From the IMG/VR virus record IMGVR_UViG_2537561823_000013: DNA of 9,289 nucleotides; one strand, 5' to 3'. Of the stretch, positions 3,624 through 6,187 are shown piece by piece. This DNA is from a virus. Taxonomy: Duplodnaviria > Heunggongvirae > Uroviricota > Caudoviricetes. Every line of letters starts with the position of its first letter. The first letter of the stretch is position 1. A model generated the notes under the pieces. The model was not told where the DNA came from. It was given only the letters and a program-made list of their open reading frames with translations, and searched no databases. The position numbers and the translations under genes are program-made.

Positions 3624-3911
3624 ATGAAACAGAAAATTTCTGGCTTTACTGCCAGCGGCCCCGCTCGGCCTGAAATCCGCCCCGGCGATATTTTCCGGGA
3701 TAACTATGGCGGCACGGTAACGATAAAAGGCGTGGCAGAACGGCGCATCACTTACCGCCGTGATGGCTACGAATATGACTGCGTGATGCCTGTTTATCAG
3801 TTCCGGCGTGATTTCACGCTGGTGGGCCATCGTAAAGCCGTAAATCAGAAACGTGCAGCAAGTCATATCCGCAAAATTCGTGAAATGCTGGTCGCAGGGG
3901 GTAAAAAATGA
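3624..3911 (+). CDS. hypothetical protein (95 aa)
   Basis: Open frame in operon context. Its stop overlaps the helicase start (ATGA at 3908-3911). Confidence 0.6.
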   Translation: MKQKISGFTASGPARPEIRPGDIFRDNYGGTVTIKGVAERRITYRRDGYEYDCVMPVYQFRRDFTLVGHRKAVNQKRAASHIRKIREMLVAGGKK

Positions 3912-5314
3912 AACTGGCACCGAACGTAAAACTGTTACCGAAAGATAAACACACTGAGGCGGTTATTTTTGCGGGTGATAATGCTCACTCCTTTGCAGAA
4001 CATTACATGATTGCACAGGCCAAAAAAGCAGGCGATCCCATCCCTCCGGTTTACCTGGGCCGTTATCAGTTAAGCGAACTGGACAACCTGCAGATTGTTG
4101 ATGAGGGGCGATACAGGGTAACGGTGATACGCGCCGGAAATATTGACGAAGCGCAGCTGTTAACCATAGCGACAAAACTGGCGATCGCCGGAGTCCAGGA
4201 AGCGCGGCTGCTTTCTGAAAACTTCGAATTACTGGAGAAATGGACCGACCAGCTTCCACGGCTACGGGAGACATGGGAGAGAGGGGAAAGCCTGATCATG
4301 AATGGAGGAAAACAAAAAATCACGCTACCGATTTCATGGGGTTCTGAGGGATTCGACGCGCAGCAAAGCTACGTAATTAAGGGGCTTATTCCGGCTGAAT
4401 CATTATGCAGCACCTACGGGGCCAGCGGTTCTTATAAATCGTTCCTGGCTATTTCCTGGTCGTGCCATGTTGCCACAGGTATGGCATGGGGAGGCCGCAG
4501 GGTAAGTAAGGGCGCGGTTATCTATATCGCTGGCGAAGGCAGTATGGGCGTAAAACGCCGCGTTAAGGCGTGGGAGATAACCCACGACAAGGTGGTTACG
4601 GATTTGTGCATCGTTAACGCGCCTGTCTTCCCTGCATCGCCTGACTATGTGGAGCAGGTTATCAGGACCGCCGGATTAGTGCAGGACAGAACGGGCGAAA
4701 GGGTGCGGATGATTGTCATTGACACGCTGGCCCGTTGCTTTGGTGGTCATGATGAAAATGACTCCCGCGACATGGGGGCGTTTATCCAGGGGTGTGACGC
4801 GATAAAGCAGGCCACGGGGGCCACGGTTCTGGTTGTGCATCATTCCGGCAAGGATGAGACGAAAGGGGCGCGGGGTTCCAGTGCATTCCGTGCGGCGCTT
4901 GATGCTGAGTTCCGAATCAGTCGGGAACATTCAGAGGCTACGGCGCTGGTTGCAGCATGTACGAAGATGAAGGACGCGGAGGAGCCAAAAGAAAGCGCCT
5001 ACGACCTTAAGAGCGTGGAGGTATTTACGGATCCTGAGGGTGAAGAAATCGTGTCCATGGTGGTGATTGACGTTCCCCGCGCCCCTGCTGAACTGGAGCG
5101 CATAGAGGAGGCCGGGAACAAGACGGAAAATCACACGGCTTTATGGGGTTGTATCCGGTCACGTATACAGCATGGTGATAAATGCACGATCCCGCTGCTA
5201 CGTGATGACATGAAAAAGCTGGGATATGACACAAAACACCTTAAACGATGGTTAGCCAAACTGGAAAAAGACGGCGTGATTTGCGTCGATGGGGATGATG
5301 TTCACCCACTGTAA
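3908..5314 (+). CDS. RepA-type (RecA-fold, AAA_25-like) replicative helicase / replication initiator with C-terminal putative DNA-binding domain
   Basis: 468 aa. P-loop-like TYGASGSYKSF, Walker B RMIVIDTLARCF, and VLVVHHSGKDETKGARGSSAF typical of the RepA/DnaB-like plasmid and satellite helicase family. SD aggggg sits about 9 nt upstream. No zinc-finger or Toprim primase signature was seen in the N-terminal 150 aa. Confidence 0.85.
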   Translation: MKLAPNVKLLPKDKHTEAVIFAGDNAHSFAEHYMIAQAKKAGDPIPPVYLGRYQLSELDNLQIVDEGRYRVTVIRAGNIDEAQLLTIATKLAIAGVQEARLLSENFELLEKWTDQLPRLRETWERGESLIMNGGKQKITLPISWGSEGFDAQQSYVIKGLIPAESLCSTYGASGSYKSFLAISWSCHVATGMAWGGRRVSKGAVIYIAGEGSMGVKRRVKAWEITHDKVVTDLCIVNAPVFPASPDYVEQVIRTAGLVQDRTGERVRMIVIDTLARCFGGHDENDSRDMGAFIQGCDAIKQATGATVLVVHHSGKDETKGARGSSAFRAALDAEFRISREHSEATALVAACTKMKDAEEPKESAYDLKSVEVFTDPEGEEIVSMVVIDVPRAPAELERIEEAGNKTENHTALWGCIRSRIQHGDKCTIPLLRDDMKKLGYDTKHLKRWLAKLEKDGVICVDGDDVHPL

Positions 5315-5514
5315 AAAGTGGGCGTTAAAAGTGGGAATAGTGGGTAATTTAACTGGAATTTAACAAAATCGCCCACTTTCCCACGTGTATACATCCCAAA
5401 AAGTGGGCACTAAAAAAATTCTTATGAAACAGTACGATATAAAACCACAAAATCCCAGGTGGGACGAAGTGGGAAACCATGAAAAGTGGGTAGAAAAAGT
5501 GGGCACAGGTGGGC
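5303..5514. repeat. iteron array with AT-rich spacer; candidate replication origin
   Basis: Core (A)AGTGGG(N) occurs as direct copies starting at 5316, 5329, 5338, 5401, 5457, 5467, 5484, 5497 and 5507. Inverted copies (CCCAC) are at 5303-5310, 5371-5378 and 5379-5384. An AT-rich stretch at 5409-5456 separates the two clusters. The array begins inside the last codons of the helicase gene. Confidence 0.65.
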
Positions 5515-5516
5515 GC

Positions 5517-5768
5517 ATGACCAGAAAAACCAGAGATAAGACAGCACCAAAATATCGCGCATTAGACATGACAGAGCACGCCTTAAAGGTGGCAATCAGA
5601 ACGATAGACCGCCACGCGGGGGAAGGATACGCGAAAGCACATCCCGAACTGATAAGCGCATTCATGACCACGACGGCGGCAAATTTTGCCACGCTGACAG
5701 AGCGGGAGATTGCGGAAGCTGAACAGGTGACAACCATCAACGTTAAAACCGGAGAGCAGACAGCATGA
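5517..5768 (+). CDS. hypothetical protein (83 aa), start trimmed to exclude the iteron-encoded N-terminus
   Basis: The ORF track starts at 5385, but codons 5385-5516 are the iterons themselves (repeated KVG/EVG/KWV). ATG 5517 follows aggtgg. The stop overlaps the ssb start (ATGA at 5765-5768). Coding status is uncertain. Confidence 0.4.
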   Translation: MTRKTRDKTAPKYRALDMTEHALKVAIRTIDRHAGEGYAKAHPELISAFMTTTAANFATLTEREIAEAEQVTTINVKTGEQTA

Positions 5769-6187
5769 CAGCACAGATAGCAGCTTACGGTCGGCTGGTG
5801 GCTGACCCGCAGTTAAAGACCACCAGCAAAGGGACACAAATGGCGATGGCGGGTATGGCGGTTCCCCTGCCGTGCAGCCAGGCAGATGACGGAACGGCGA
5901 CGATGTGGTTATCTGTCCTGGCGTTTGGCAGACAGGCCGACGCACTGGCAAAACACCACAAAGGCGAACTCCTGAGCGTGGCGGGTAACATGCAGGTGAG
6001 CCAGTGGACAGGCCAGAACGGCAAAACGCGGCAGGGCTGGCAGGTTATCGCAGATAGTGTAATCAGTGCCAGAACGGCGCGACCGGGCGGCAAAAAAGGT
6101 CAACAGGGCCAGGCCACTGACGCATTGAACAGGGCAAAACAACAGTCAGGGAATGATGAACCGTACGGCGATAATATACCGTTTTAA
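5765..6187 (+). CDS. ssb: single-stranded DNA-binding protein (SSB family, OB fold) with C-terminal ...DNIPF tip
   Basis: 140 aa. WLSVLAFGRQADALAKHHKGELLSVAGNMQVSQWTGQNGKTRQGWQVIADSV aligns by eye with E. coli SSB [52 protein letters not shown]. The C-terminus DEPYGDNIPF resembles the canonical DDDIPF tip. SD ggagag lies 9 nt upstream. Confidence 0.8.
   Translation: MTAQIAAYGRLVADPQLKTTSKGTQMAMAGMAVPLPCSQADDGTATMWLSVLAFGRQADALAKHHKGELLSVAGNMQVSQWTGQNGKTRQGWQVIADSVISARTARPGGKKGQQGQATDALNRAKQQSGNDEPYGDNIPF

Follow-up and report, generated by a model that had tools for sequence, protein, structure and literature searches.

A probable iteron-type replication origin directly downstream of a RepA-family helicase gene in an Escherichia coli PICI-type satellite

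Introduction

Among the described replicons with short origin repeats, the E. coli phage satellite P4 encodes the alpha protein, a single polypeptide that unites an N-terminal primase, an SF3 helicase and, at its C-terminus, a winged helix recognising short repeated octamers at the origin; crr is required as a second site in cis. In the IncQ plasmid RSF1010, a separate protein, RepC, recognises the 20-bp iterons, while priming is carried out by RepB' at ssiA and ssiB. The classical iteron plasmids (pSC101, R6K, RK2, F and P1) carry 17–22 bp iterons in helical register, recognised by a Rep_3 double winged helix without helicase activity, and depend on DnaA boxes and on DnaB/DnaC loading. Plasmid iteron-binding initiators also commonly autoregulate.

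The nearest precedents for the locus described here are the origins of SaPIs and Gram-negative PICIs. One published account (PMC6092414) puts the PICI origin directly downstream of rep, as two sets of iterons on either side of an AT-rich region, and states that the rep-ori segment of EcCICFT073 supports plasmid maintenance; autonomous replication driven by rep-ori is reported only for EcCICFT073 and the SaPIs. SaPI Reps bind 6–12 penta- or hexanucleotide iterons via a C-terminal winged helix, at origins described with opposed iterons on each side, and those characterised are AAA+ ATPases, with Rep1 and PriRep5 assigned to SF3 and Rep2 to SF6 (PMC9371898).

Here we analyse a stretch of 9,289 nucleotides, referred to as the window. 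Judging from its sequence features and from the analogy with these systems, positions 5313–5513 very probably form the vegetative replication origin of an E. coli PICI-type satellite, and the adjoining 468-aa protein would serve as both initiator and replicative helicase.

Results

The satellite and its proposed initiator-helicase

The window corresponds to a PICI-type phage satellite of E. coli. Its gene content includes an integrase (1–1242), AlpA (1768–1974), a DUF4222 protein, a RepA-family helicase, an SSB, capsid E, decoration D and a Nu1-like TerS; most genes lie on the + strand of an island of about 9.3 kb, which is integrated beside tRNA-Pro/yejM. The repeat array is located inside a unidirectional operon, with the following coding features around it:

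3624–3911, + strand: DUF4222 gene (Pfam PF13973, E 1e-25)
3908–5314, + strand: initiator-helicase gene, 468 aa (Pfam AAA_25, E 7e-43; RefSeq 'helicase RepA family protein')
5099–5311, + strand: codons of the C-terminal winged helix (residues 398–468), from structure prediction
5517–5768, + strand: 83-aa gene with its true start at ATG 5517 (PHROG 1231, RefSeq CDS)
5765–6187, + strand: SSB gene (Pfam SSB; TIGR00621), last gene of the replication module

The DUF4222 gene overlaps the start of the initiator by 4 nt and is found 5' of the initiator in every related locus, with either initiator type (L002–L007, L088–L092). The helicase, the DUF4222 protein and the 83-aa protein are all without a model in NCBIfam.

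The helicase is composed of an alpha/beta N-terminal domain (residues about 6–125), an SF4 RecA-type ATPase (AAA_25, residues 146–317) and a C-terminal winged helix, the closest solved relatives of its core being RSF1010 RepA, T7 gp4, Twinkle and DMC1. The C-terminal domain is predicted with pLDDT values of 85–95 and matches solved winged-helix domains; its recognition helix comprises residues 445–454, with His444 (codon 5237–5239) at the N-cap. An earlier first-pass annotation, made from the letters alone, had put this domain forward as a candidate iteron binder. Both the predicted fold and the covariation of a recognition-helix residue with the repeat, described below, support a winged helix that reads the repeats.

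The same annotation had seen no primase in the window, and domain searches indeed found none; the helicase has neither a Zn ribbon nor recognisable Toprim motifs. Homologues in Xenorhabdus, Serratia and Pectobacterium carry a fused Zn-ribbon and Toprim primase followed by the helicase. Domain searches of the window likewise returned no Rep_3 domain, and no replication protein domains other than the RepA-like core, so that nothing resembling the RepC/RepB' set of RSF1010 was found. The D5_N and Pox_D5 domains are absent from the window protein as well; both, along with a primase domain, are present in the alternative initiator of L006. The phage collection yielded no full-length homologue of the helicase, with no record covering at least 80% of the protein.

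Composition of the repeat array

The pentamer GTGGG occurs on the + strand at 5318, 5331, 5340, 5403, 5459, 5469, 5486, 5499 and 5509, and its complement CCCAC at 5305, 5372 and 5380; this recount gives the nine direct and three inverted cores that had been claimed at first pass. The window contains 27 such cores in its 9,289 nt, 12 of them within a 217-nt region (cores in 5305–5513), where 0.36 would be expected from the rate in the rest of the window (binomial, 3e-13), and none of 2,000 dinucleotide-preserving shuffles of the region gave any 5-mer 12 times (maximum 8). The longer AGTGGG is matched 14 times in the window against 3.5 expected, with 9 matches inside the array region, and the strong form of the repeat, AAAGTGGG, is present in 6 copies. 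Repeats measure 7–10 nt, with typical spacings of 8–17 nt. Successive cores are separated by 13, 13, 9, 32, 8, 23, 56, 10, 17, 13 and 10 nt, and these 11 intervals, ranging from 8 to 56 nt, agree with the irregular spacing noted earlier. Because of this irregularity, Tandem Repeats Finder reported nothing in 5300–5520.

From left to right, the region is divided as follows:

5305–5310, − strand: AGTGGG match in the last helicase codons (His-Pro-Leu-stop), absent from L002, which has the same repeat, and from L003–L005
5313–5344, + strand: left set of three direct repeats (cores 5318, 5331, 5340), at positions kept in alignment A1 and across genera
5345–5369, no strand: 25-nt AT-rich spacer with two copies of AATTTAAC, from the repeat-family listing
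5370–5384, − strand: two inverted repeats (CCCAC at 5372 and 5380), facing the central direct repeat (alignment A1)
5386–5393, no strand: TGTATACA palindrome, halfway from the inverted repeats to the central direct repeat, kept whatever the repeat class
5398–5407, + strand: central direct repeat (AAAAAGTGGG), which forms a 9-bp inverted pair with 5371–5379
5408–5458, no strand: candidate unwinding element, an AT-rich spacer of 51 nt (71% AT) inside the 56-nt gap between cores
5459–5513, + strand: right set of five direct repeats (cores 5459, 5469, 5486, 5499, 5509; alignment A1)

The conserved copies number eleven, six to the left and five to the right of the AT-rich spacer. An inverted copy had also been placed within the last codons of the helicase; it does exist at 5305, but relatives do not keep it, and since it is missing even from L002 the copy at 5305–5310 is probably fortuitous and outside the conserved array. 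The left side holds both direct and inverted copies and the right side, in the window, direct copies only, while Xenorhabdus relatives have one inverted copy on the right side too.

The AT-rich segment that had been described between the repeats corresponds to the spacer at 5408–5458, which holds the second least stable 40-mer of the window (5411–5450, −44.9 against a mean of −56.6 kcal/mol). When the spacer was folded as single-stranded DNA, no hairpin beyond those of shuffles was obtained, and only the inverted repeat pair folds, trivially. A pattern search of 5200–5600 found no DnaA box, IHF consensus, Fis site, GATC or 13-mer; with no DnaA box, IHF consensus or 13-mer, nothing therefore points to host-factor help. 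An Rfam scan of 5200–5650 gave sub-threshold noise only, and scans of 5100–5900 returned no sigma-70 promoter and a single terminator-like match, no more than chance.

The array takes up the space from the helicase stop (5314) to ATG 5517, where the downstream gene begins. PHROG 1231 aligns only with residues 45–126 of the ORF at 5385–5768, the RefSeq gene starts at the ATG equivalent to 5517, and the in-frame upstream extension is open for 2, 9 and 25 codons in L004, L003 and L005, respectively. The proposal that the N-terminus of this ORF is an artefact is thus borne out, the upstream frame being shut in L003–L005 and open in L002. The last right repeat (AGGTGGG) ends 3–4 nt 5' of ATG 5517 and is probably also the site at which ribosomes bind for the 83-aa gene.

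Conservation of the layout

The layout is common to about 90 related loci in Enterobacterales, all with the array directly 3' of the helicase. Placement downstream of the initiator was originally claimed for the window, where the helicase stop ends at 5314 and the first conserved repeat starts at 5313–5322. The conserved order is two to four direct repeats, one inverted repeat, the TATA(T/C)A box, a further direct repeat, the spacer, and four to five direct repeats. An inverted copy is present at the equivalent of 5370–5384 in 70 of the 72 loci with an array, and a TATA(T/C)A-type box occupies the TGTATACA position in 69 of the 72. Within alignment A1, which comprises five loci, seven of the eight positions of this box are identical throughout, the C at 5392 being T in L002 and L004. 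The equivalent spacer, compared in 70 loci, has a median length of 55 nt and 71% AT, and is barely AT-rich in some genera (54–56% in L027 and L057). Taken globally, two repeat sets around an easily melted spacer, as in published SaPI and Gram-negative PICI origins, agree with the iteron origin and unwinding element proposed at first pass.

The repeat sequence, in turn, changes in concert in all copies between lineages: at the same aligned positions, every copy is GTGAG in L003 and L005, and GTGGG in the window, L002 and L004. L006 and L007 have the same flanking genes, an SF3 D5-type initiator and unrelated GGTAGA repeats. The DNA similarity of the SF3-initiator locus to the window resumes exactly at ATG 5517, with the 83-aa gene of L006 showing 89.5% DNA identity from the ATG onward.

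A 421-nt query covering the helicase 3' end, the origin and the start of the 83-aa gene found related sequence at 1,165 places in 969 of 5,426 complete E. coli genomes; 336 of the genome matches cover at least 80% of the query, and the weakest reach only the flanking 83-aa gene. The helicase-origin module is present across Enterobacterales.

A recognition-helix residue tracks the repeat

The repeat class is tracked by the residue that follows the conserved Lys where helix 3 begins, His444 in the window. Histidine is found with GTGGG in 9 loci (plus 2 with GTGGGGGC), asparagine with GTGAG in 25, lysine with TGGGGG in 28 and serine with YGCGGC in 7, with no cross-class combination among the 71 classified loci. 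For a prospective test, loci with mixed 422/444 combinations were selected from protein sequence alone and their DNA was fetched afterwards. Residue 444 predicted the repeat in all six newly fetched loci (L088–L093), and its agreement with repeat base 4 extends to all 11 E. coli-type loci. A second specificity determinant was suspected in residue 422 (His/Asn/Arg) but ruled out, since this residue did not predict the repeat in the mixed combinations.

The winged-helix coding region lies 60–300 nt from the repeats, so some covariation is expected from linkage alone. However, residue 422, just 66 nt further from the repeats, is uncoupled. This pattern suggests that one helicase amino acid sets which repeat is recognised. 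A fragment of residues 392–468 is predicted to bind GTGGG (AAAGTGGG) specifically, compared with AAAGTGAG or scrambled oligonucleotides.

Other possible roles of the repeats

An array bound by the helicase winged helix could have a mainly transcriptional role, as an operator through which the replication operon is autoregulated or read-through to the 83-aa, SSB and capsid genes is gated, the origin then being elsewhere. The overlap of the last repeat with the probable ribosome-binding site, the position of the array in a unidirectional operon and the frequent autoregulation by plasmid iteron-binding initiators would fit this role, but no sigma-70-like promoter was found in 5100–5900, and 11 copies in both orientations are unneeded for an operator. 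Moreover, two sets around an AT-rich spacer 3' of rep are the layout shown to be an origin in SaPIs and tested in EcCICFT073. We regard an operator with the origin elsewhere as improbable; the operator and origin roles are themselves compatible and not exclusive. Just as poorly favoured is an origin to which the helicase is recruited by some other island product that recognises the repeats, namely the DUF4222 protein, the 83-aa protein or an AlpA-type regulator. The DUF4222 and 83-aa genes always flank the initiator-origin cassette, yet both are kept in L006 and L007 despite the SF3 initiator and its GGTAGA repeats; the repeats thus follow the initiator and not its neighbours, and base 4 of the repeat follows helicase residue 444 in every one of the 11 loci compared.

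A packaging signal (cosB/pac-like) bound by the Nu1-like small terminase of the island has in its favour that small terminases use winged-helix domains on short repeated sites. It is nevertheless hard to credit: terS lies about 2.9 kb downstream of the array, the same GTGGG array goes with quite different packaging modules in relatives, L002 having a ClpP-capsid fusion and L004 another TerS and capsid, and near-identical helicase bodies go with repeats that differ according to the helicase C-terminal domain. The least credible reading, refuted as far as sequence analysis allows, is that the repeats are coding, as the N-terminus of the ORF at 5385–5768, or a chance cluster. A 127-aa ORF with a GTG start does span the right half of the array, in a frame that is also open in L002, but the profile match and the annotation begin at 5517, upstream of which L003–L005 have the frame closed, while chance is countered by the shuffles, none of which reaches the observed count, and by repeat positions conserved across genera.

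Discussion

The preferred reading, an origin recognised by the helicase encoded next to it, leads to a proposed sequence of events. Induction of the island by a helper phage, through AlpA-driven transcription, would be followed by binding of the helicase winged helices to the repeats. The opposed pair (5372–5384 and 5403–5407) that encloses the TGTATACA box would act with the two direct sets to position helicase rings on both sides of the 51-nt AT-rich spacer, which would then melt. Mechanistically, the SF4 rings would load themselves onto the single strands with no separate loader, and the island SSB would coat the single-stranded DNA. Because the helicase is a short form without a primase domain, primers would be supplied by host DnaG or by the helper phage. 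In the literature surveyed we found no direct precedent for an SF4 ring that loads itself onto a duplex origin. Initiator gene and origin move together as an exchangeable cassette, in which changes of a single recognition-helix residue, with matching changes in all repeats, would create distinct replicon specificities.

Extended beyond this locus, the data make it reasonable, though far from assured, that there is a family of SF4 (RepA/gp4-type, 5'–3') origin initiators that are loader-independent by virtue of a fused winged helix. A His/Asn/Lys/Ser N-cap code (GTGGG/GTGAG/TGGGGG/GCGGC) would define replicon specificities among E. coli satellites, with primase-less forms needing host or helper priming. 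If true, the self-loading SF4 initiator would represent a mechanistically distinct solution, loading on the opposite strand, since the satellite self-loading initiators characterised so far belong to SF3 or SF6 (3'–5').

As matches are widespread in E. coli genomes and in Enterobacterales, this helicase-origin module would drive amplification in a class of phage satellites that is very common and that moves virulence and defence genes. The analysis provides exact coordinates for the origin and its sub-elements, fixes where the downstream gene truly starts, and yields a simple, testable rule (residue 444 versus repeat base 4) usable to predict or re-engineer replicon specificity and compatibility.

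Compared with the classical iteron plasmids, the window shares direct repeats, a winged-helix initiator and an adjoining AT-rich unwinding element, but has no 17–22 bp phased iterons, no Rep_3 initiator and no DnaA box in 5200–5600. It differs from RSF1010 in that origin recognition is apparently fused to the helicase, the repeats are 7–10 nt long and there is no plasmid-type primase. T7 gp4 and Twinkle have the same SF4 RecA-type hexameric helicase core, and their order of Zn ribbon, Toprim and helicase matches that of the long Xenorhabdus, Serratia and Pectobacterium homologues; gp4 and Twinkle are without an origin-binding winged helix, whereas the window protein is without the Zn ribbon and recognisable Toprim motifs. 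P4 alpha resembles the window protein in combining a helicase and a C-terminal winged helix in one polypeptide, in its short origin repeats and in belonging to an E. coli phage satellite. However, the window protein lacks a primase domain and has SF4 instead of SF3 as its core, and P4 alpha has closer counterparts in the D5-type initiators of L006 and L007.

The greatest likeness is to the SaPI and Gram-negative PICI origins, as published (PMC6092414, PMC9371898): a site immediately 3' of the initiator-helicase gene, with 6–12 short repeats that form two sets on either side of an AT-rich stretch, some of them opposed. The C-terminal winged helix on the initiator, the integrase, AlpA, the unidirectional operon and the tRNA neighbour are shared as well. 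In contrast to the SaPI origins, the window has inverted copies only to the left of the spacer. The general origin architecture is already published, and our result is a well-supported annotation of a known kind; what differs is the initiator-helicase, a protein without a primase domain whose core is an SF4 RecA-type helicase (AAA_25) and not the SF3 or SF6 ATPase of the SaPI Reps.

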